NCBI GenBank assembly: GCA_947474365.1
Contig: CANJIU010000009.1
Coordinates: 64,457 to 128,456 of the forward strand
Direction of reading: 5' to 3'
Source: Opitutia bacterium
GTDB taxonomy: Bacteria; Verrucomicrobiota; Verrucomicrobiia; Opitutales; Opitutaceae
Length of the DNA: 64,000 nt
The notes beneath the pieces are model-generated. The model searched no databases, was not told where the DNA came from, and saw nothing but the letters and a program-made list of their open reading frames with translations. The position numbers and the translations under genes are program-made. Positions 6,501 through 31,031 of this stretch are shown piece after piece (within the stretch, counting starts at the first letter, position 1; every line of letters begins with the position of its first letter).

Positions 6501-6640
6501 GTCGAGAGCGGAGAGCCGGGAGCTGAGAGCAAAACCAAACGGTGAACTTCGGTTTCGGGTCGGGCGGCGCGCGTGTCTGGTCTCGAGATTGGGCTCTCAG
6601 CTCTTCGCTCCGAGCTCTCGACTGCATGGTCGCGGCTAAT
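6501..6640. repeat. R1 copy 1 plus an imperfect inverted-repeat partner (gtcgagagc..agctgagagc / gctctcagct..gctctcgac), forming a long hairpin between the SGNH hydrolase stop and the Ig-like protein start
   Basis: Read directly from the sequence. Arms at 6501-6530 and 6593-6622. Confidence 0.65.
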
Positions 6641-7440: not shown

Positions 7441-10400
7441 TCAACGCGCCGAGGCGGGAATCAACCGGATTCCACGTACGTCGGCGAGTTCCCGTTTCAA
7501 GGGCCCATCCGGCTTCAGCTGAATGCGGTTCACGCCGCTGCGCAACACGAGCCGGCCGGAGGGTTGCTCGCGAAACGTCTCGTAGTCGCCCGTCGACGGC
7601 ACCTCGCCCCGCGTCCGGCTTCCCTCGGTTTCCACCACGAAGAAATCGCCTGCCGAATCATCGTCCGCCGCGAGATTCACGCGCACCTCGAAGGTTCCAC
7701 CGGACTCAAGCTCCACCGTCCACTCCGCGATGTCGGTGGCGACTGTCCAGGGAGCCAGCACGTCAAACACCTGCCGGTAGCCGAGCTTTTGCGCGTAGAC
7801 CACCGCCTTGCCGGCGGGAAGCAGAATCTCCCCCGACGGTATCGGCCGAAGCACGACAGCGGGGCCGGCGCCAGTTCCCTCTTTCTGGCCCGGAACGGCC
7901 GTGAGTTCCCCCGCGGTCCAGGGCAAGGTGCGGCCGCCGGTTTCGCGCCGGATGCCCGCAATCAACTGCGGCTCGACCACGCCCGCATCGTTCCCCCAGG
8001 CACGCCGGACATAACTGATGACCGCCGCCATCTTGTCGTCGTCGAGTATCCCGCTGGCGCCGAGGGCGGGCATGCTCAGATTCCACGTCTGTCCGCCGAC
8101 CGAAATGGGGCCGTACAGGCCGTGCATCACGATACGAGCGACCCGCTCGACGGGCCCCTTGACCCACTCGCTCGCGGCCAGTGAGGGCGCCACATTGGGA
8201 GCACCGCCACCGTGCCCCTGATGACAGGCAGAACAAATCGCGGTGTAGATTTCACGTCCCTCCTCCACGCGTTTCCTTTCCAGCGCGGAGAGCACCCGGG
8301 CTCCGGTATCCGCACTCGTCTCCGCGACCGCTCCCGGCCACGCAAACACCTCCAAGGCACGGTAGGCGACCTGGCGGAGCGAAGCGTCCGAGCCCCGCGC
8401 GAGGCGGAGCAGTACCGCCGGCTCCCGGGTTAGAGGCGCAGGCTTGACGCGTCGGCTCCCGGTTGGCGCGAACGTGGTCAGCGCCTCCAGCAATGCCTCG
8501 TGGTGCCAGGGCGCGGAACGTCCCGCCGTTTCCAACAGGGCGATCAGGGCGTCGTTGCGCGGCGCATCTCCGGCCTCCAGCACGCAGTGCACGGCCAGAC
8601 TGGCGATCCGCCGCTGCCGTGCGCCGAAGGTTGACTGATCGGCAAACGTGCGGAGGAGCGCCTGGAGAAATTCCAGCTCGCGCCCTTCCCTCCCCGACAG
8701 CGCAGCGACATCGAAGAGCGTATCCTCGCCGGCAATCGCCAGCGCCAACAGCAACGGCAGCGACTCCGGCAGCACCATCGCACTCGCCGTCAGCGTCGCC
8801 TGCAACCGGACGGACTCACTCCGATCCCGCCGGGCGGCGCCCAGTTTCGCGAGCAGGGTGGATTGTTCCGTTGCCGCAAGTCCTCGTTCACTCAGACGGA
8901 TCGCGGCTGCACGCACGCGATCATCGCCATCGCCCATCGCGGCGAATTTTGTCGCGGGGTCGAGGGCGCCGAGGCCGTCGAGAGCCCACAGGGCGTGCAA
9001 CCGCCCGAGCGGCGCGGAACCACGGCGTGCCTGTTCCCGCAATGGCGGCACCGCGCTGGGATCGCGCCGTTCCACCAGCAGGCGCTGCGCCGTCAGCCGC
9101 CACCAGCCCGTGGCGTCGCCGAGATGGGTGATCAACTCCGAGGAGCCGGCCTGATCGAGCCTGGGGCGGCCCCGTTCCACCGGGCGATCGTCACGCACGA
9201 CGCGGTAGAGGCGGCCCATGTCCCTGCCGGTATCAAGCTTTCGATCACGCACCTGATCGCTGATCCACGGCACCATGAAAATTACGTGCTCGATGATCCC
9301 GTGGTACATGTCGGCGACGTAGAGCGCCCCGTCGGGACCGACGCGCGCGTTGACAGGCCGGAAGCGTTCGTCGCTCGACGCCAGAAATTCCTGCTCGGCC
9401 GGATAAAAGCGCGTCGCATTCGGCCGGATGCCGCCGCTAAGCCGCAACCGGCCGATGAGATTGCCCCCGGCCTCGGGGACGAACACATTGCCCCGAGCCT
9501 CCTCGCCCAGCTGCTCTCCGTCGTAGTAACACGTGCCGGATGCGATGGTGTAGGTCTGCAGGCGGGCGTCGTCCCGCAGTTCCAAGGCACCGAGCGTGAT
9601 CCCCGGCGTCACGCGGATCGGAAAGACCTCCTGCGCCTCAGTGGCGATGTTCACGCTCACGCCCCCGGAACCGCGGCCACCGCGCGCCACAACCCGCGCG
9701 AGGTTGTGATTGCGCACCAGATACTCCGCCGGAATCAAATCGGCGTGCAGCGCTGAGTTCTGGTGGCAGGTCATGAACCGCCCCGTCTCGTCAAACGTGA
9801 CACCGAATTGCCCATGGCGAACCGTCTCCTCCTCGATGAATTTCCCCTCGAGCCAGCGGTGCCGTTTCGTCGAATCGGCACTGTGCAGCCAGTTGTCGAT
9901 GCCGTAGCGAAGCCCGTTCGCGGTGTGCTGCGGATTGCCCGCAACCCCCATCGTCCCCACCTCGGTGCGTCGATCACAGCGCAGGTCGCCGTCGGTGTCC
10001 TCACAAAACCAGACCTTGGGTGGCTCCTGCACCAGCACGCCTCCCTTCACAAAGGTGAGCGACCGTGGCATCACCAGCCGGTCGAGGAAAACCGTGCTCT
10101 TGTCAGCGCGGCCATCGCCATCGGTATCCTCCAGCACCACGACGCGGCAGATCGGATCGCCCTCGCCGCCACCCTTGATGTCGCGCATGTAGCCCTGGTA
10201 CTCGACGACCCAGATGCGGCCCGCCGGGTCAAATTCAAAGAAAATCGGATTCTGCACCATTGGCTCGGCCGCCACGAGTTCGACCCGATAGCCCGGCGCC
10301 ACCCGGAAACTGCGCAACGCCTCCTCCGGCGAAAGCGGCGGCGCCGGCGGCACCTTGATGCGCGAGAGGAGATCGGCGCCCTTTTCCCATTGCGCCGTTC

Positions 10401-16788: not shown

Positions 16789-17149
16789 CTGCTAGTTTGC
16801 AACAAATAGACGCGGAACGTCCGCAAGCGGATGAGGCATGCCGATTGGAATATCGGGAAGCGGGTCCGCGGACGCCGGGAGCCGGAGTCTTGGATCCCGG
16901 CGAACATCAATCGGCATGACCGGTCCGCTGCCCCGCGCCTGGTTTCGACGACGTGGGCGTCGCCGCTCCAGCAGGGCGCAGCAGAAATAGGGAGTAAGTC
17001 CGAGAGGGACGCCGACGCTGCCGATGTCACTCACGAGGTCGCCCCCCTCACCCCATGAGGTTCAAGAAGTCGCCCGGGATGAAAATGAAGGACCGCTTTG
17101 GCGTAAACGAGGGCACCCCTTCTTACGACCGCAGACCGACCGAAATCGG

Positions 17150-17235
17150 ACGGGCGAGACCGCCCTGCCGGCTCCATGCTATGTCTATGCTATGTCCATG
17201 CTGCGTCCCTTTATGGCGATTTCCGGCGACCAGCC
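17150..17235. repeat. R2 copy 1, in the 890-bp non-coding region upstream of glnD
   Basis: See 27050-27135. Confidence 0.75.
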
Positions 17236-17680
17236 CGGCGATCCCGGAGCCGTTGCCGAGACCAGATGCCGTAAAACACTCCATGGGCATGGCTTAGGTC
17301 GCCGGCGGCGCCGCGAGGGCCCACCTGTGCTCCCCTATTTTTCTGACTGAAAGCAGGTTAGCGGGCGGCATCCGTTCCTCCAAAGGAAGCGATTCCAAGT
17401 GCCGCCAACGGCGAGCGGGCAACGCGATCACCCCGTGGGAGTCGAAAAGGTAAGGGACGACTCGCTCTTTGAGCGGTCCGGGCTGCTTGTCGTGCGGACG
17501 GACGATTTCGGACGCCCCGGAGGTGCGTCCCTACCATCCAGAACTCGTTTTCGATGCATTAAGAGGGGCGCCACGCCCCCGTTTGCCGGCGACCTACCGC
17601 CCCGCGGTTGCGGGATTCCCAACTTGGGCGTTGAATGTTCGACGTCCGCCGTTCGAAGTTGCACGTTCGTCGTCCCACCC

Positions 17681-23263: not shown

Positions 23264-23878
23264 TCACTCCTCGAGTTCCACGTTCCAATACGCGACGTCG
23301 AGAAAGTCCTTCCACTGCTCGTGCTGCTGCGTGCCGAGCACGAGGGAGATCACCGGGCGCCATTTCGGTCGCACCGGCTTGCGAATCAAGCGCATGCTCG
23401 CCTCGTGGGGCAGCCGGTTCGCCTTGCGCGAATTACACTTGATGCAGGAGCAGACGATGTTCTCCCAGGTGGTCTTCCCGCCGTAGTCGCGCGGGATCAC
23501 ATGGTCGAGATTGAGTTGCTCGCGCGGCAGGATGCGGGAGCAGTACTGGCAGGTGTTCTTGTCCCGCTCGAAGACGTTGTTGCGGGTGAGCTTCAGTTCC
23601 TTGCAGGGCAGCTTTTCGAAAAACGTGAGCAGAATCACCCGCGGCAGGCGGATCAATCGGGTCGGCGTGCGCACCGCTTCGCGCGCGGCCCGCGGCGGGT
23701 TGTTCACCGAGAAATCGATCCAATCGAGCATCGAGAACGTGCGAAAATCATCGTCGTGATGATGCACCACCTGCGCATGCCCCCGCGCGAGCAACCCGAA
23801 GGCCCGTCGCGCACCAATGACGTTAACCGCCTGCCAAAGGCGGTTCAGCACGAGCACCGGTTGGTCGAGCGCTGCTTC
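23264..23878 (-). CDS. HNH endonuclease
   Basis: HNH motif CQYCSRILPREQLNLDHVIPRDYGGKTTWENIVCSCIKCNSRK. Start placed at MEAALDQPVL (ATG 23878). The upstream ORF extension is rejected. Confidence 0.8.
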   Translation of the reverse strand, partial: EAALDQPVLVLNRLWQAVNVIGARRAFGLLARGHAQVVHHHDDDFRTFSMLDWIDFSVNNPPRAAREAVRTPTRLIRLPRVILLTFFEKLPCKELKLTRNNVFERDKNTCQYCSRILPREQLNLDHVIPRDYGGKTTWENIVCSCIKCNSRKANRLPHEASMRLIRKPVRPKWRPVISLVLGTQQHEQWKDFLDVAYWNVELEE

Positions 23879-24298
23879 CATACTGGGACACGCCAATAAC
23901 GGGGCGCCCGACGGACTGTCAAGGATGCGGGCAATCCTTCGCGCGCGGCGGGTGCATTTCAATTCCTGGACACTGGGAGTCACGGCTCCAGCAGTTGCAC
24001 GGGATCGGACCGACGGCGTCAGACTGCCCCGTTTAACAGGCTCCCTCCCATCCTTGCGCCGGCGCAAATGACGCGAGCATCGGCGTGGGCAATGGCATCA
24101 GCGCCTTTTGGGCAGGTCGCACTCAAGGGCGACAAGCCGGGCACAGTGGTAGAATGCGTCAATCTGGGGCGGCGGCATTCCAGGGGACGAGCAGGCACGG
24201 TAACGTCCGTGATCCCTTCGTCCGCCCCATTTCGCATGAATGAACGACGATTCATCTCATCTCCGTCCCGACGCAAACCCGGTTAACCTTTTCACCGA

Positions 24299-24712
24299 AT
24301 GAAAACGACCTGCCTGCTCGCGCTCTTCGCCCTCGTCACCTTCTGCGGCGGATGTGCCACCGTCAGCCCGAGGGTGACCAGTGGAATTCGGATCAACCCG
24401 GAAGCCGTAAGCGACATTCTACCCGGGGTGACAACCCGCGCGGAGCTCATCCGTCAATTCCGCCAATGCTTTTTGGGGACACCGCAGTGGACATGGGATG
24501 CCGAGCGAGCGATTGCCTATACGTGGACCACGAGCAACGGGGCGACAGCGCGGTGGTATGGCAAAATCTTGTCGGTGCAGCAAACAGACTGGGCCCTGGG
24601 GATCGTCTTTGATTCATCGGACCGGGTGGTTCGCTACGATTTCTTCAAATCGTCGTCGTCGCCGGAGAAAACCCGCGAGGCCGTGGAGGCATGGATTCAC
24701 GCCAAGTCGTAG
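24299..24712 (+). CDS. Hypothetical lipoprotein
   Basis: MKTTCLLALFALVTFCGGCA lipobox-like signal. 137 aa. Codon usage is less GC-biased than the neighbours. Confidence 0.55.
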   Translation: MKTTCLLALFALVTFCGGCATVSPRVTSGIRINPEAVSDILPGVTTRAELIRQFRQCFLGTPQWTWDAERAIAYTWTTSNGATARWYGKILSVQQTDWALGIVFDSSDRVVRYDFFKSSSSPEKTREAVEAWIHAKS

Positions 24713-24805
24713 CAGGGGTGCGGCTGAGCTGATACCGCCCGAGACTCCGTCACCTCACGCGATCCGTTACCCTTGAAATCCGCGCATAAGGAAGTCGATC
24801 CCTCG

Positions 24806-25294
24806 ATGAACTCACTCCCTCGCTGCCCCCACGTCCGCACCGTTCTCACCGTAGTCGTCGCGCTCCTGTCCCTGGCTGCCAGTCGAGTTACCGCCGTCGC
24901 ACAGACCTTGCCCCCGGGGGCTTCGCTCCAGCCCTTTGCCTTCGCTTCTGCCCGAGCGGCCCTCCCCTCCTTTGCCACAAACAAAGAGCGCCATTTCGAC
25001 TCCGATGTTTTTCTGACCAGTAAGGGGAAAGTCGCACTCGTGATGCCCTGGGCTTTTAATGGATCGAATGCGTGGGTGCTTGGGTTGGTGGGAATTGAAG
25101 CCGCCCTCGTTCTGCACCAAGAAAATGTTCAAAAGCGCGAAGTCGCACGAATCGACGAACAGATTGGGATGGTTGCCCTCACCGACCCGACCCGGGCGAA
25201 AGTTTATCGAACCGAGATGGAACGCGCCATGGCTGGTCGATCAACCAACGTCATGCCAATGCGTGAAAGCTTTCGAGGCACCGTTAGACGATAG
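24806..25294 (+). CDS. Hypothetical secreted protein
   Basis: MNSLPRCPHVRTVLTVVVALLSLAASRVTAVAQ signal-like N-terminus. No recognisable domain. Confidence 0.45.
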   Translation: MNSLPRCPHVRTVLTVVVALLSLAASRVTAVAQTLPPGASLQPFAFASARAALPSFATNKERHFDSDVFLTSKGKVALVMPWAFNGSNAWVLGLVGIEAALVLHQENVQKREVARIDEQIGMVALTDPTRAKVYRTEMERAMAGRSTNVMPMRESFRGTVRR

Positions 25295-25425
25295 CGCGGT
25301 GGCGGTCGCTCGGCTGCGCGTATCTGACCCATGAGCCTGATGTTTGATGGGCCCCATGACCCGCATGGACATTCTCAGTCTTGCCAAGGGCGATGACACC
25401 ATCGCGCCTTGTTCCCAAACCAAGG

Positions 25426-25463
25426 TCGCGGGAGAATGGCAGGCAAAACATTCTCCCGCGACC
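25426..25463. other. Perfect 14-bp stem hairpin (gtcgcgggagaatg / cattctcccgcgac, 10-nt loop) in an unassigned lower-GC stretch
   Basis: Read directly from the sequence. No flanking U-run on either strand, so it is not a canonical intrinsic terminator. Confidence 0.5.
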
Positions 25464-25968
25464 CTCTGCTGTTCACCGATGGGTACGCGTCTCGTCGTGG
25501 TAGTTTATCCGAAAGGTGGGTTGAACCCGGTGCCCGTAGGTCGAGCGTGCTGTGGCAACGAGCGGTCCTGATGCACGGCGGATCGCAGCCTCTGACCGGC
25601 AACTCGAAACGTTTCGCGTCCCTCAGCCCGGGACCTTCAATCCACTCGACTTTGATCTACGCCAAACCTGGGTTGTCGTTAACCGAAATCCTGACACGCG
25701 CGTTTGACCGCCTCATGGATTGCACGAAAAAATCGCACCCCAAAACCTGCAATGCCATGTCTACGTTTTTTGGGGTATGTAGTCTGTAACACGCGGCGAG
25801 TTCCTGAGCTCCCGGAGGTGCAACGTATCCGACCAGCCAGTAGCGGAAGGGCTTGGTGATCGGTTTCGTTGCCGGAGTGGCGGATATATGAAGGGCTTCG
25901 GTGCCGAAGTCGATCATCTGGACCGGCACTTGTCTGAACTTGAAGTCTACGCCTGCAATGGTTGCCGG

Positions 25969-26841
25969 CTAGAGTTTGCTGACCACCGGGGAGACGGGCA
26001 GCGCGAGGTGCAGGCCGGAAATCCGGTTCAGGTCGATGCTGACTTCGCGCGCTTCATTCTCGGCGCGACCGTTGAGTGTCAACCGGAGCGGCGCCGGCGT
26101 GATGCGGAAAAAGAGGCTGCCCGTGACGGTCTGACCGGGCGCGAGCGAAAGCGGCAGGACCAGTCGGCGACGGGTGAATTCCTCCTCGATGCGGTGCTTG
26201 CTTCGGATGTTCATCGCCACGCTCCCGACGGCCACCACCGGCAGGGCAACCACAGCCGCGGTCCCGACGCCGACGGCTGCGGCCCCCGCAGTGGTCATCC
26301 CGCTGAAGAATCCGCCGCTCAACGCCCCCGCGACGGCGACTCCCGCGCCCGCGACCGTGCCCGTTCCCAGCAGCAGCATCGTCTTGGTCTGGTCGGCCGC
26401 GTTGCTCTGCCACCAGGTTTTGCCGGCGCGATCGAGCTTCCAGGGATCTTCACCGGGAGTCACAGGCTCGCTGTGGGCGCTCGCCAACGTGGCGGTCGAG
26501 ATGACGAGCGGTGCTTCGCCGCGATTCGTCAGCGAGACAATATATTCGTCCCAATAGGCCTCGCGCTTCCAGGAGCCGGGGCCTTGGTAAATAATCACGG
26601 TGTGCAAAGTGGCCGCGGCCAATGGCGGCGCCGTGGGAGCTGTCTCGGCGCTGGTAGATGGACCTGGATTGGCCGAAACGATCGGTGCGCTGGAAAGTTC
26701 CAGCGGCACGACAGCGGGCGTGGATTTGTCCGCGAGTTTGTAGCCCCGGGTGACACAGCCAGTGAGCGTGAGGAGGACAGTCGCGGCGCCGATAAAACCC
26801 AGGCAACTGTAAATGAAGGAAGACGCACGGCATGTTTTCAT
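25969..26841 (-). CDS. Hypothetical lipoprotein with Gly/Ala-rich TM-like segment
   Basis: MKTCRASSFIYSCLGFIGAATVLLTLTGC signal/lipobox. Pro/Ala-rich linker. Gly/Ala-rich hydrophobic stretch (GTGTVAGAGVAVAGALSGG...). 290 aa. Confidence 0.55.
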   Translation of the reverse strand: MKTCRASSFIYSCLGFIGAATVLLTLTGCVTRGYKLADKSTPAVVPLELSSAPIVSANPGPSTSAETAPTAPPLAAATLHTVIIYQGPGSWKREAYWDEYIVSLTNRGEAPLVISTATLASAHSEPVTPGEDPWKLDRAGKTWWQSNAADQTKTMLLLGTGTVAGAGVAVAGALSGGFFSGMTTAGAAAVGVGTAAVVALPVVAVGSVAMNIRSKHRIEEEFTRRRLVLPLSLAPGQTVTGSLFFRITPAPLRLTLNGRAENEAREVSIDLNRISGLHLALPVSPVVSKL

Positions 26842-26907
26842 GAAGGGAGCTTAGATGGGGTTGCCCTTCATGCGGGATACTGGGTCGAACCGGATCAGAT
26901 AGACGGG

Positions 26908-27015
26908 CCGGCCACGACCGGGACAGCCCGTGAATTGCTGCCCGCTGCAGCCGCGATCGGGACTATTTGTGAGCCGAGACTAACAATTCACGAAATAACC
27001 CGTTTGGCAGGCATC
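26908..27015. repeat. ~100-bp repeat unit A, with internal inverted repeat ccgtgaattg...caattcacg. Copy 1 of 2.
   Basis: Shares about 80% identity with 27690-27815: ..cccgtgaattgctgcccgctgc..ctaacaattcacgaaataacccgtttggcaggc vs ..tccgtgaattgctagcccgctgc..ctaacaattcacggatagacccttttggcaggc. Confidence 0.7.
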
Positions 27016-27049
27016 CTTTTGCCCCCGGAACGGCCGGAATCGAACGGAC

Positions 27050-27135
27050 GCGACCGCCCTGCCGGCTCCTTGCCGTGTCCATGCCGTGTCCTTGCCGTGT
27101 CCCTTCTGGGCGTTTTCCGGCTGCCGGTCCGGTTT
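27050..27135. repeat. ~90-bp dispersed intergenic repeat (family R2), copy 2. Contains three 10-bp tandem units (cWtgcYRtgtc).
   Basis: cgaccgccctgccggctccttgccgtgtccatgccgtgtccttgccgtgtcccttctgggcg matches 17150-17235 (gagaccgccctgccggctccatgctatgtctatgctatgtccatgctgcgtcccttt) at about 80%. Confidence 0.75.
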
Positions 27136-27212
27136 CCGGCGCCCCCGTTCTGGCCGAACCGCCACACGGCGAGTGCCGCCAGCCGGGCGACCGAGAGCCG
27201 CGGGGCTATGAT

Positions 27213-27268
27213 GATTGGGCTCTCAGCTCTTCGCTCTGAGCTATCGTCTGGCATCGTTCCGGCTCAGG
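27213..27268. repeat. ~50-bp dispersed intergenic repeat (family R1), copy 2
   Basis: gattgggctctcagctcttcgctctgagctatcgtctggcatcg matches 6586-6640 (gattgggctctcagctcttcgctccgagctctcgactgcatgg). Confidence 0.75.
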
Positions 27269-27391
27269 CAACGACCTGCAATCAGCGGATTGGCCTCGTT
27301 GGGCCGGCCGTGAAATCCGGGGTCGGGCGTCCTCTGGCGCCCTTTCGGACCTCCTCTCGTCCTTCACTACCGGTATACTGCCGGGATACTC

Positions 27392-27435
27392 ATCACCCAC
27401 AGATTACCCACACATCACCCGCACATCACCCACAG
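27392..27435. repeat. Tandem array of 4 x 11 bp (atcacccacag attacccacac atcacccgcac atcacccacag)
   Basis: Read directly from the sequence. Confidence 0.8.
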
Positions 27436-27689
27436 CGGTCGTTTCCCGCCGGGTGGAGCCGCCTCGCGCCCAACCGGGCCGCGCAGCACTGCTTCCCCCC
27501 GCATCCGGCAACCGCTCCGCGGCGGCAGCGCCGACGCCGTGACGCCATGTCGCTTTAACCTACCCACCACTATAACCTGCCTCGCCGCGCCGAGGAAGGG
27601 AAAGTTCGGCCCGAGCGTGCAAGTCGTTGCCGCGATCGAACCGTAGTACTTTTTTTGCCCCGCGCTCCAAACACGAAGCACGGGGCTGG

Positions 27690-27815
27690 CGACCGGCCCG
27701 ACCGGCGACCGGCCCGACCGGGTCAGTCCGTGAATTGCTAGCCCGCTGCCGCGACCGGAGCTCTTTGTGGCCATGGACTAACAATTCACGGATAGACCCT
27801 TTTGGCAGGCCGCAT
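27690..27815. repeat. Repeat unit A copy 2 of 2. Preceded by a tandem duplication of cgaccggcccgaccgg.
   Basis: See 26908-27015. Confidence 0.7.
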
Positions 27816-27905
27816 GGATGGCAGGCCGGGTTGCCGCAACGTCACGACTCCGTCGAGCGCATCCCGCCACGGGTTGCGCGCTGGAACGTTTCTAAAAGTC
27901 GCCGC

Positions 27906-27980
27906 AAACCCACGCGACGGGGCGTCTCGTACCCAGGGAATCGGATTCCGAACGGATCGAACTGGAGCGGCGACGCGCCC
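27906..27980. repeat. ~75-bp direct repeat (family R5), copy 1
   Basis: aaacccacgcgacggggcgtctcgtacccagggaatcggattccgaacggatcgaactggagcggcgacgcgcccg vs 28015-28092. Blocks aaacccacgcgac, ccggattccgaaYggatc and actggMgcggcga are conserved. Confidence 0.65.
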
Positions 27981-28014
27981 GATGACGCCCCAGCAAGTTG
28001 CGCAATAGCATAAC

Positions 28015-28092
28015 AAACCCACGCGACAGTGACGTTGCGTCCCCAGAAACCGGATTCCGAATGGATCAGACTGGCGCGGCGATGTCCGCCCG
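28015..28092. repeat. ~75-bp direct repeat (family R5), copy 2. Contains a perfect 9-bp stem hairpin ctggcgcgg/ccgcgccag.
   Basis: aaacccacgcgacagtgacgttgcgtccccagaaaccggattccgaatggatcagactggcgcggcgatgtccgcccgcgccag. Ends 20 bp before the helicase stop codon. Confidence 0.65.
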
Positions 28093-28111
28093 CGCCAGCC
28101 TCGAAAAGCAC

Positions 28112-29941
28112 CTACTCCGTCTTCGTCTCGTCGCCCGCGAGCGCGGGCTCAAGCGCGATGCCCTTGAGTTTGATTCCGGCGAGTTTCTTCACGATGAACT
28201 CCGCCTCAGGCTTGGCCACATCGGCCAGCGTGTGCCGCTGGTGAATGTCGATCGCCCCGACCACGGTGGCCGGAAGGCGGGTCACTCCCGCGATCTTCCC
28301 CACAATGTCCGCCGGCGTGACGAGTTGCTTGCGGCCAACATTGAGAAAGATCGTCGCCATCTCGGGGTCCCGTCCGGTTCGCGCTGGGCGTTCATACTTT
28401 GGCTTCCGGGACGACCCGGCTTCAAGGTCGTCCTCGGATGGCGTGGTCGTCTCGGACGGGAGTTCGGCAGCGGCGGCGCCGTGTGTACGCGCGACATCGG
28501 CCACCACCTCCTTGGGCGACGTGACGGCCTTGGCCCAGGCGGGCGCGGGCTTGGCGGAACGCGGCGCGGCCGGTACCGACGTCGGCGTCGCGGCGAACGG
28601 CGTGGCCGGGACGGGTGCACCCGGTTTCTTCCCGGTCGCCGAGGCGGCAGCCTGGCTACCCTGCAGGAGATGGATCAATGCCGAACAGATGTCCGTGCTG
28701 GCGTACCCCTGGTCGAGCAACCGATCGATCAGCTGGTCGTGGGGCTTGAACTCCTTCGCATCGAGCGTCGCGCGGATTTTTTCCACGAAGACGTTGGACC
28801 GGGCCGCGTCGACCTCGTCGAGCGATGGAATCTTTCCGCGCCGGATGTCGAGGCGAGCCCAGCGCACCATGCTCTGCAGTTTGTAGATCTCCTGGCCCGA
28901 CACGAAGGTGAAGGCCTGGCCCTTCCGACCGGCGCGTCCGGTGCGCCCGATGCGATGGGTGTAGTCCTCTGCATCGTTTGGCAGGTCGAAATTGAACACC
29001 ACCTCGAGGTCGTCGACGTCGAGCCCGCGGGCGGCAACATCGGTCGCAACAAGGAACTCGAATTTCCGCTCACGGAACTTCTGCATCACGCGGTCACGCT
29101 GCGCCTGGGAAATGTCACCATGCAGACGGTCGGTCAGATAGCCGCGCGAGTGCAGGTGCTCGTCGAGGTCGTCGACCATGATCTTCGTGCTGCAGAAAAT
29201 GATGCCATAGCGAAAGTCGTTCACGTCGATGAGCCGGGTGAGCGCCTCAATTTTCGACCGCCGGTCCACCTCAAAGTACGTCTGCTCCACCTGCGGGGCG
29301 TTTTGCGCGACGGACTCGATTTTGATCCAGGCCGGATCCTTCGAGTAGCGGGAAATCAGGTCCTGAATCGCCCGCGGGATGGTGGCCGAGAAAAACAGCA
29401 GCTGCCGCGTGGGCGGCACGGATTTCAGGATGTGCTCGATGTCATCGCGAAACCCCATGTCGAGCATGCGGTCGGTCTCGTCGAGGATCGCGAGCTTGAG
29501 CTGGTCGAGTTTCAGCGTGCCGCGCTCCATGTGGTCCATCACGCGTCCCGGAGTGCCGATGACGATCTGCACTCCGGCCGCCAGGGCGCGGAACTGCCGC
29601 TCGTAGCTCTGCCCACCGTAAATCGGCACGCCCGAGACGCCGCGCTTGAAGAGCGCGAGTTTGCCGAACTCCTCCGCCACCTGTACCGCCAACTCACGCG
29701 TCGGACAAAGGATCAGCACCTGCACGGCCCGAATCTTCGGGTCGACCTTCTCGATCGCCGGAATGGCAAAGGCCGCGGTCTTTCCCGACCCGGTTGACGA
29801 CTGTCCGACGACGTCGCGGCCGGTCAAGATCGTGGGGATGACGGCCGTTTGAATGGGAGAAGCCTCCTCAAATCCCATCTTCGCGACGGCTTTCAGGAGG
29901 TCCGGCGAGAGGCCGAGTTGATCGAACGGGCGTTTTTCCAT
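28112..29941 (-). CDS. DEAD-box ATP-dependent RNA helicase (DeaD/CsdA-like) with ~170-aa low-complexity C-terminal extension
   Basis: Start at MEKRPFDQLGLSPDLLKAVAKMGFEEASPIQ (Q-motif), ATG 29941. Walker A GQSSTGSGKT. DEAD box. SAT and HRIGRTGRAG motifs. Ala/Pro-rich tail and a C-terminal RNA-binding-like domain. The six-frame ORF extension to 30643 is rejected. Confidence 0.9.
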   Translation of the reverse strand: MEKRPFDQLGLSPDLLKAVAKMGFEEASPIQTAVIPTILTGRDVVGQSSTGSGKTAAFAIPAIEKVDPKIRAVQVLILCPTRELAVQVAEEFGKLALFKRGVSGVPIYGGQSYERQFRALAAGVQIVIGTPGRVMDHMERGTLKLDQLKLAILDETDRMLDMGFRDDIEHILKSVPPTRQLLFFSATIPRAIQDLISRYSKDPAWIKIESVAQNAPQVEQTYFEVDRRSKIEALTRLIDVNDFRYGIIFCSTKIMVDDLDEHLHSRGYLTDRLHGDISQAQRDRVMQKFRERKFEFLVATDVAARGLDVDDLEVVFNFDLPNDAEDYTHRIGRTGRAGRKGQAFTFVSGQEIYKLQSMVRWARLDIRRGKIPSLDEVDAARSNVFVEKIRATLDAKEFKPHDQLIDRLLDQGYASTDICSALIHLLQGSQAAASATGKKPGAPVPATPFAATPTSVPAAPRSAKPAPAWAKAVTSPKEVVADVARTHGAAAAELPSETTTPSEDDLEAGSSRKPKYERPARTGRDPEMATIFLNVGRKQLVTPADIVGKIAGVTRLPATVVGAIDIHQRHTLADVAKPEAEFIVKKLAGIKLKGIALEPALAGDETKTE

Positions 29942-30601: not shown

Positions 30602-31031
30602 CTCGCAGCCCGGGACATTCGGCGCGCTCGGGGACGAAATCATCCATCAAACCGCCCCGCCAACGGCACTTACGCGACCTACGTAACAGCGATGCTTGTA
30701 CGCGGTGCCGCGACACGCATTCTCCGACGCGTTCTTAGGATTTACACGCCTAAGCTGCCGCCGCTTCCTCGGCGACCAGCACGGGGGACCCAATTTTCCG
30801 TCGCCAGCACGAGCAATCGCGCAGGCGGCGGGCGGGGCGAACGGACGCGGGCAACCGCGGCCAAGGTGACTTCCTAGCACCGAGCCCGTCAGCTAACCTC
30901 GTCGGCAATGGGAAGGGTGATCCACTAGAGCGCCGCATTTGCGGATGTCTCCAAGGTCGCTCCAACGCAACCGCACCGTCGTGCACGTCGGGGAACACCT
31001 GTCGTGCGGGCGGCGCTTTCCAGACATCGCC

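Follow-up and report, generated by a model that had tools for sequence, protein, structure and literature searches.

Positions 24290-25968 of a 64,000-nucleotide stretch of contig CANJIU010000009.1 from an Opitutia bacterium of the family Opitutaceae (the window) form a patch of low GC content, which is probably the core of an accessory islet of ~4.2 kb between two conserved, co-oriented core genes, deaD and an HNH-domain gene. The islet is an ordinary product of gene turnover, an instance of a well-known kind and not a new type of element. As predicted from its sequence, it would encode three exported or lipid-anchored proteins, the products of lipo137, orf162 and lipo290. The interval is composed as follows:

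23264-23881, minus strand: HNH-domain gene, 205 amino acids (aa), Pfam HNH_5 at 1.4e-15; flank, outside the insertion
23893-23922, minus strand: sigma-70-like promoter of the HNH gene (TTGACA, 18 nt, TATTGG), conserved in relatives
23934-28111: lineage-specific islet, ~4.18 kb, GC 62.1%, bounded by the deaD stop codon and the HNH promoter
23934-24298: non-coding stretch separating lipo137 from the divergent HNH gene
24299-24712, plus strand: lipo137, orphan gene, 137 aa, N-terminal signal peptide and atypical lipobox FCGGC
24806-25294, plus strand: orf162, orphan gene, 162 aa, signal peptide, second hydrophobic helix and helical C-terminus
25295-25968: non-coding spacer, 674 nt, between the convergent orf162 and lipo290
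25969-26841, minus strand: lipo290, 290-aa lipoprotein gene, canonical lipobox LTGC
25960-26896, minus strand: lipo290 cassette, the gene plus ~55 nt of upstream DNA
26842-28111: repeat-rich non-coding right arm, length varying between strains
28112-29941, minus strand: deaD, DEAD-box RNA helicase gene, the called product of which matches Pfam DEAD, Helicase_C and DbpA

With a GC content of 58.6%, compared to 63.9% for the whole window, the patch is the lowest-GC segment for its size (z = -3.6); same-size windows average 64.0% with a standard deviation of 1.5%, and just 0.14% of them are equally low. The drop in GC content that a first-pass annotation, made from the sequence alone, had described for this patch is therefore real. 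Minima of the 300-nt GC profile (54-56%) were located at ~25000-25900, and by segment the values are 59.9% in lipo137, 58.3% in orf162, 57.9% in the spacer and 65.1% in lipo290. The same strain was recognised in metagenome assemblies with 99.96-100% identity across the region.

Synteny was counted in the best 80 of 583 related Opitutaceae HNH loci. In 41 of these 80, deaD is the immediate upstream neighbour of the HNH gene, in the same orientation, and the relatives that keep this synteny share 62-85% aa identity in deaD. The gap between the two genes has a median of 164 nt in the 41 relatives (range 64-3104 nt; less than 300 nt in 33/41), compared to 4230 nt in the window, the largest seen. 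DNA homology to the relatives ends at ~23924-23933, just beyond the HNH promoter. Neither homologues of lipo137 or orf162 nor any DNA or protein homology to 23934-25959 were found in the 80 related loci, and tblastx of the islet against them returned scattered noise only. The sole match to lipo290 among these loci was a homologue of 32% identity in L045, which lies elsewhere in the locus. Since the gap is short in most relatives and homology to 23934-25959 is absent from them, the short gap appears to be ancestral and ~23934-28111 to be a lineage-specific insertion. The first-pass annotation had proposed that composition within the genomic norm together with conserved synteny in relatives would speak against acquired DNA; when both were checked, the patch proved neither normal in composition nor syntenic.

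Three other lineages have unrelated cargo in the same interval: locus L020 encodes a polytopic membrane protein of 615 aa (weak PMT_2 match), L065 a Cupin_5/DUF985 protein along with several small open reading frames (ORFs), and L073, on the opposite strand, a protein of ~470 aa that bears a Tat-type signal. As far as the gene content of these loci tells, the deaD-HNH interval is a hot spot of gene turnover. Horizontal gene transfer hot spots devoid of mobile-element genes, with core flanks that recombine, have been described (Oliveira et al. 2017, PMC5635113). As in those hot spots, accessory genes occupy one interval between core genes, the cargo varies by lineage, no integrase or transposase was seen, and the divergence between strains is mosaic, which fits recombination through the flanks. 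The two situations differ in that hot spots were defined in the pan-genome of a species, whereas the turnover reported here is seen across genera (41 loci), the islet being shared by both strain lineages of this species. Atypical composition and absence from the syntenic site in relatives are likewise features of classical genomic islands and integrative elements; the islet differs from them in measuring 4.2 kb only and in lacking an integrase, a tRNA and edge repeats, and is not a member of that class. Specifically, no integrase, recombinase or transposase Pfam domain was detected among the islet ORFs scanned, the window contains no tRNA, and the islet edges are not joined by any direct repeat of >= 14 nt. 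No match came from distant-mode searches of phage and plasmid DNA or from viral-contig searches with lipo137 and orf162. The locus provides a clean case of gene turnover in the deaD-HNH interval of Opitutaceae, with little significance beyond annotation.

A second strain lineage, represented by contig L100 and the fragments L101, L106 and L107, carries the whole islet at ~95.5% identity to the window. Core genes diverge by 3.5-6.3% between the two lineages, nearly all at third codon positions, and all indels between the strains fall outside lipo137, orf162 and lipo290. By our tally, divergence reaches 11.6% in 25209-25337 and drops to ~0.7% in 25338-27590. As this low-divergence stretch spans the synonymous sites of lipo290 too, a recent recombination tract explains the nearly identical spacers better than selection on an RNA would. 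The core flanks also hold low-divergence tracts.

Sequence evidence indicates that lipo137 and orf162 are probably real genes. Between the strains, lipo137 differs by 5 synonymous and 2 non-synonymous changes (third positions 5/7) without an indel, and orf162, intact in both lineages, by 8 synonymous and 4 non-synonymous changes (third positions 9/14). Pooled, 14/21 substitutions occupy third positions, for which we estimate a binomial p of ~0.002 against 1/3. This bias and the confinement of indels to DNA outside the ORFs imply that both are under some constraint as genes. Because the third positions of orf162 are the first positions of the minus-strand ORF opposite, the latter is unsupported. 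Both products have credible N-terminal signal peptides (cleavage motif AVA-Q in orf162, by our reading), and orf162 is preceded by an AGGA-type ribosome-binding site 12 nt upstream. Codon usage is atypical: the codon score of lipo137 (0.13) corresponds to the 5th percentile of core genes and that of orf162 (0.02) to the 1st, and the GC content at third codon positions (GC3) of orf162, 0.62, lies under that of every equally long core-gene window.

In accordance with the first-pass annotation, neither small ORF has a recognisable domain. Pfam, NCBIfam and PADLOC yielded no meaningful match, and lipo137 gave one weak full-length PHROG match (phrog_3135, a phage family of unknown function, E 1.1e-5). 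Among 5.8 billion proteins each of the two matched its own species cluster only. PDB sequence searches with lipo137, orf162 and lipo290 were empty. Single-sequence AlphaFold models had a predicted local distance difference test score (pLDDT) of 59 for lipo137 and 46 for orf162, both of low confidence; Foldseek of the lipo137 model against the PDB found no fold match at E <= 0.001, and neither model yielded a usable fold. A BamE/SmpA_OmlA-type lipoprotein, considered as a candidate identity for lipo137, found no support: there was no Pfam match at E <= 0.1 and no PDB sequence match, and the best Foldseek E value was 0.03, from the low-confidence model.

It might be argued that lipo137 and orf162 are not genes but ORFs that occur by chance in acquired DNA, non-coding throughout 23934-25968. 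Homologues of the two were not found outside the species, their codon scores overlap with those of shadow ORFs (as high a score is reached by 6% and 13% of the latter), AlphaFold confidence is low and gene calls are inconsistent. Against this stand the third-position bias, the integrity of both ORFs in two lineages with indels only between the genes, the signal peptides and the ribosome-binding site, and the full-length PHROG match (E 1e-5) of lipo137. Moreover, a 17-nt tandem duplication in the second lineage copies the orf162 start codon yet preserves the ORF. We consider this alternative unlikely. Where the first-pass annotation had seen weak coding potential in both, they look more like real genes.

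The duplication just mentioned (TCCCTCGATGAACTCAC) lies at 7955-7990 of L100 (window 24798-24815) and spans the start codon of orf162. It creates a 6-codon upstream ORF (MNSLPR) whose TGA overlaps the real ATG (ATGA), and the 162-aa ORF is retained. That lipo137, orf162 and orf126 (the longest spacer ORF), which share one frame, constitute a single broken gene is ruled out by several intervening stop codons; the separate signal peptides of lipo137 and orf162 also counter this idea. In being short, equipped with a signal peptide, restricted to the species, atypical in codon usage and located in accessory DNA, the two resemble taxonomically restricted orphan genes for small secreted proteins and lipoproteins, and no feature sets them apart from this general class.

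Convergent to these genes, lipo290 has relatives in 576 clusters at 50% identity, an uncharacterised family whose members share the same C-terminus; its codon score lies at the 7th percentile of core genes. An 81%-identical homologue adjoins an ankyrin-repeat gene in another organism, an unrelated context, and the DNA shared with it (84%) is confined to 25960-26896. This implies that lipo290 is a single-gene cassette of which the spacer is not part; the spacer is absent beside that homologue. The two species-restricted exported proteins and this uncharacterised lipoprotein family can be flagged as putative accessory envelope components. The 32%-identical homologue among the related loci (L045, 10791-11471) is situated on the far side of the HNH gene, before a histidine kinase gene, at the place held by an ACT-domain gene in other relatives. 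Opposite lipo290 and the repeat region, a 556-aa ORF on the plus strand (25888-27558) is a shadow ORF with a negative codon score, an artefact of high GC content and not a gene; the same holds for other very long ORFs.

As the first-pass annotation had stated, 25295-25968 contains no convincing ORF: in all six frames the codon scores of spacer ORFs are negative (-0.15 to -0.51), and their GC3 is 0.61-0.65 compared to ~0.81 in core genes. Pfam, NCBIfam, PHROG and PADLOC gave no match for them. That the spacer, and possibly orf162 too, is the decaying remnant of a gene that came with the islet would agree with the low GC content, the lack of coding signal and the unusually long convergent gap. 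The reading frame past the lipo290 stop codon also stays open for 103 more codons, and gene callers report ORFs of 74-117 aa in the spacer on short contigs. However, 25657-25968 is ruled out as the lost tail of a truncated lipo290, because lipo290 homologues share the same C-terminal end. Family libraries and tblastx against the related loci yielded nothing beyond noise, and by our reading the few spacer substitutions follow no codon-position pattern. A protein search with the concatenated spacer ORFs was also empty, a weak negative because it left the sequence's own database entries unrecovered as well. Decay could not be shown, as nothing homologous to a gene was detected and the adjoining lipo290 is full length, and we think it improbable. 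Thus, of the two origins that had been suggested for the patch, horizontally acquired or decaying DNA, the former is upheld by synteny and codon usage and the latter was not demonstrated.

Two candidate termination structures were found in the spacer:

25424-25438/25449-25463: perfect hairpin of 15 bp with a 10-nt loop, 130 nt past the orf162 stop codon
25720-25775, minus strand: weak stem (CCCCAAAA/UUUUGGGG) followed by U6, ~190-250 nt past the lipo290 stop codon

The first of these had been described as a perfect hairpin of 14 bp; it is present and perfect, with a stem of 15 bp. Its folding energy is -30.7 kcal/mol on the plus strand and -32.8 kcal/mol on the minus strand (z -5.5 and -4.7). 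It is the sole perfect short-loop hairpin of >= 12 bp in the 64 kb, for which first-order Markov simulation gives a chance expectation of 0.5 at 12 bp and, by extrapolation, ~0.01 at 15 bp; no other copy of it occurs in the window. It is invariant in all strain variants (L100, L101, L106 and L107), so that no compensatory changes were seen in it; the latter three carry nearly the same allele as L100.

Most likely, the hairpin acts as a terminator without a U-tract, perhaps a bidirectional one. Compared to a canonical intrinsic (L-shaped) terminator, the GC-rich stem-loop is present (15 bp, -30.7 kcal/mol) and the U-tract is missing: the plus-strand tail reads CUCUGCUGUUCA, and the minus-strand tail UUGGUUUGG is a partial tract only. 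Terminators lacking the U-tract ("I-shaped") have been described for high-GC mycobacteria (PMC12288462). They share with the hairpin a GC-rich perfect stem-loop after a stop codon, the lack of a T-run and a high-GC genome; they differ in lying within ~50 bp of the stop codon instead of 130 nt from it, and the role of the hairpin here is a prediction. A strong hairpin without a T-run also ends other genes of the window; for deaD it lies at +9 (-28.9 kcal/mol), for the Band_7 gene at +3. To our knowledge, transcription termination has not been characterised in Verrucomicrobiota. In 23800-28200, canonical terminators show no enrichment (1 found compared to 4.0 expected). The weak stem at 25720-25775 (-16.8 kcal/mol, z -1.0) is not significantly stable; it is possible, with low confidence, that it serves as the lipo290 terminator. 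Integron gene cassettes have an intI integrase nearby and imperfect attC palindromes with core sites behind each cassette; by eye, the 15-bp hairpin is perfect, shows no GTTRRRY core sites and occurs once for three genes.

In the short deaD-HNH spacers of L021, L027, L030 and L032, long near-perfect palindromes (for example GCTCCAAGCTCCAG...CTGGAGCTTGGAGG) without T-runs were observed ~100-200 nt before locus position 10000. Strong terminal hairpins without a U-tract may be general in the family.

A non-coding RNA locus had also been suggested for the spacer, and no positive evidence for one was obtained. If the spacer encoded an undescribed small or structured RNA, the 15-bp hairpin would be its terminator or core helix. 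The very stable, statistically non-random hairpin, the identity of 25338-25741 between the two strain lineages, the absence of coding signal and one promoter-like site on the plus strand (25704-25733) are compatible with this. However, the number of such sites is at chance level (1 found compared to 0.7 expected), the whole-spacer fold is unexceptional (z -1.2 and -1.5), and Rfam gave no match over 23800-28200 even at E <= 5. The low divergence continues through lipo290, synonymous sites included, to 27590, which argues for a recent recombination tract and not for constraint on the spacer, and the spacer sequence occurs in one species only. We regard such an RNA as quite doubtful. Equally doubtful is a more novel reading, in which lipo137 and orf162 arose approximately de novo in, or were captured by, a permissive intergenic hot spot, or in which the spacer with its invariant hairpin specifies a new regulatory RNA, particular to the species, that targets the exported-protein genes of the islet.

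The HNH gene, whose end had been placed at 23878 and is corrected here to 23881, had been annotated as an orphan endonuclease bordering the patch; 417 nt separate it from the patch, and it is far from being an orphan. Its exact 205-aa product is already on record, the 90%-identity cluster of this protein has 1214 members (IMG label McrA), and homologues were found at the 583 related loci, the best 80 of which are 78-92% identical in aa sequence over the full length, the closest being that of Horticoccus sp. 23ND18S-11 (92%). Compared to strain L100 the gene has 21 synonymous and 0 non-synonymous changes, and its codon score is typical (47th percentile of core genes). The promoter motif is located at a fixed distance from the ATG in all 13 relatives read and marks the left boundary of conserved DNA. 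The number of loci, the size of the cluster, the synonymous-only changes, the typical codons and the promoter shared across genera imply that, on sequence criteria, the HNH gene is a core gene outside the acquired DNA. That it is a homing or mobile endonuclease with the patch as its cargo or scar, as its HNH domain and the variable DNA directly upstream of it in several lineages might suggest, is contradicted by the present data and extremely improbable, since the gene is syntenic and 78-92% identical across genera rather than sporadic in distribution and variable in location, is under purifying selection with only synonymous strain differences and typical codon usage, and keeps its own conserved promoter, beyond which the variable DNA begins. 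This corrects the tempting inference that an HNH gene beside odd DNA denotes a mobile element.

The HNH protein is more conserved across Opitutaceae genera (78-92%) than the neighbouring deaD product (62-85%), which is unusual for an HNH gene, and it looks like a protein with a housekeeping role rather than one in restriction or homing. For researchers of Verrucomicrobiota this conserved 205-aa protein with its own promoter may be the more interesting object.

A history of the islet can be proposed from these observations. Its DNA would have arrived in at least two pieces, either inserted illegitimately or recombined in via homology of the conserved flanks rather than carried by a self-mobile element, and would later have been exchanged between strain lineages. 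The genes lipo137 and orf162 would form one plus-strand transcription unit, the transcript of which the 15-bp hairpin would end or stabilise, perhaps also halting convergent transcription from lipo290. The most economical reading of the spacer is that of a 3' region between two convergent, separately acquired modules in which the hairpin marks a transcript end; the rest of it would be 3' untranslated or junk DNA between these modules.

Several observations weigh against this account. A donor was not found, so that horizontal origin is supported by synteny and composition alone, and the nearest reference genome represents a different genus-level lineage (HNH 92%, deaD 83% aa identity); as the nearest islet-free genome is that distant, the insertion is undatable. 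The codon score of orf162 is very poor, and some gene callers omit this gene and others choose the minus-strand ORF. For lipo290, 1 synonymous versus 6 non-synonymous changes between the strains do not resemble purifying selection, the counts being small. A convergent-gene spacer of 674 nt is long for this genome, in which the p69-ACT gap measures 33 nt. Finally, the hairpin lacks a T-run on the plus strand and stands 130 nt past the orf162 stop codon, compared to a position within 50 bp in mycobacteria (PMC12288462). Taking these points into account, we still consider the account as a whole to be likely.

Beyond the lipo290 cassette, the right arm, which differs from L100 by 171 gap columns, contains two repeat pairs:

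26908-27012/27709-27810: copies of a palindromic element
27905-27981/28014-28092: copies of an 80-nt unit

The palindromic element is ~100 nt long, with the degenerate second copy 800 nt off at 80% identity. Its fold is an extended hairpin with energies of -55 and -65 kcal/mol (z -4.3 and -6.2), both copies contain GTGAATTG(C/T)TAG in inverted orientation, and it may be similar to miniature inverted-repeat transposable elements (MITEs) or repetitive extragenic palindromic (REP) sequences. Further parts of the arm have copies elsewhere in the window (27028-27132 resembles 17134-17238 at 78% identity, and 27213-27264 resembles 6587-6637 at 86.5%), which makes them dispersed repeats of this genome; none of these was found in the related genomes. 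An 11-nt unit (CCTTGCCGTGT-like) is present in three copies at 27057-27100, and a 16-nt unit (GGCGACCGGCCCGACC) is duplicated at 27688-27719, with one copy only in the second lineage. The 80-nt unit, with 80% identity between its copies, lies directly past the deaD stop codon; its deaD-proximal copy contains the terminator-like hairpin of deaD (28060-28100), and between the strains this region differs by a 51-nt deletion and a ~100-nt insertion. The sole Rfam match at gathering thresholds in the whole window is a c-di-AMP riboswitch at 30737-30922 (ydaO type, 56 bits); the Band_7-domain gene lies downstream of it, and an amino-acid permease gene comes next.

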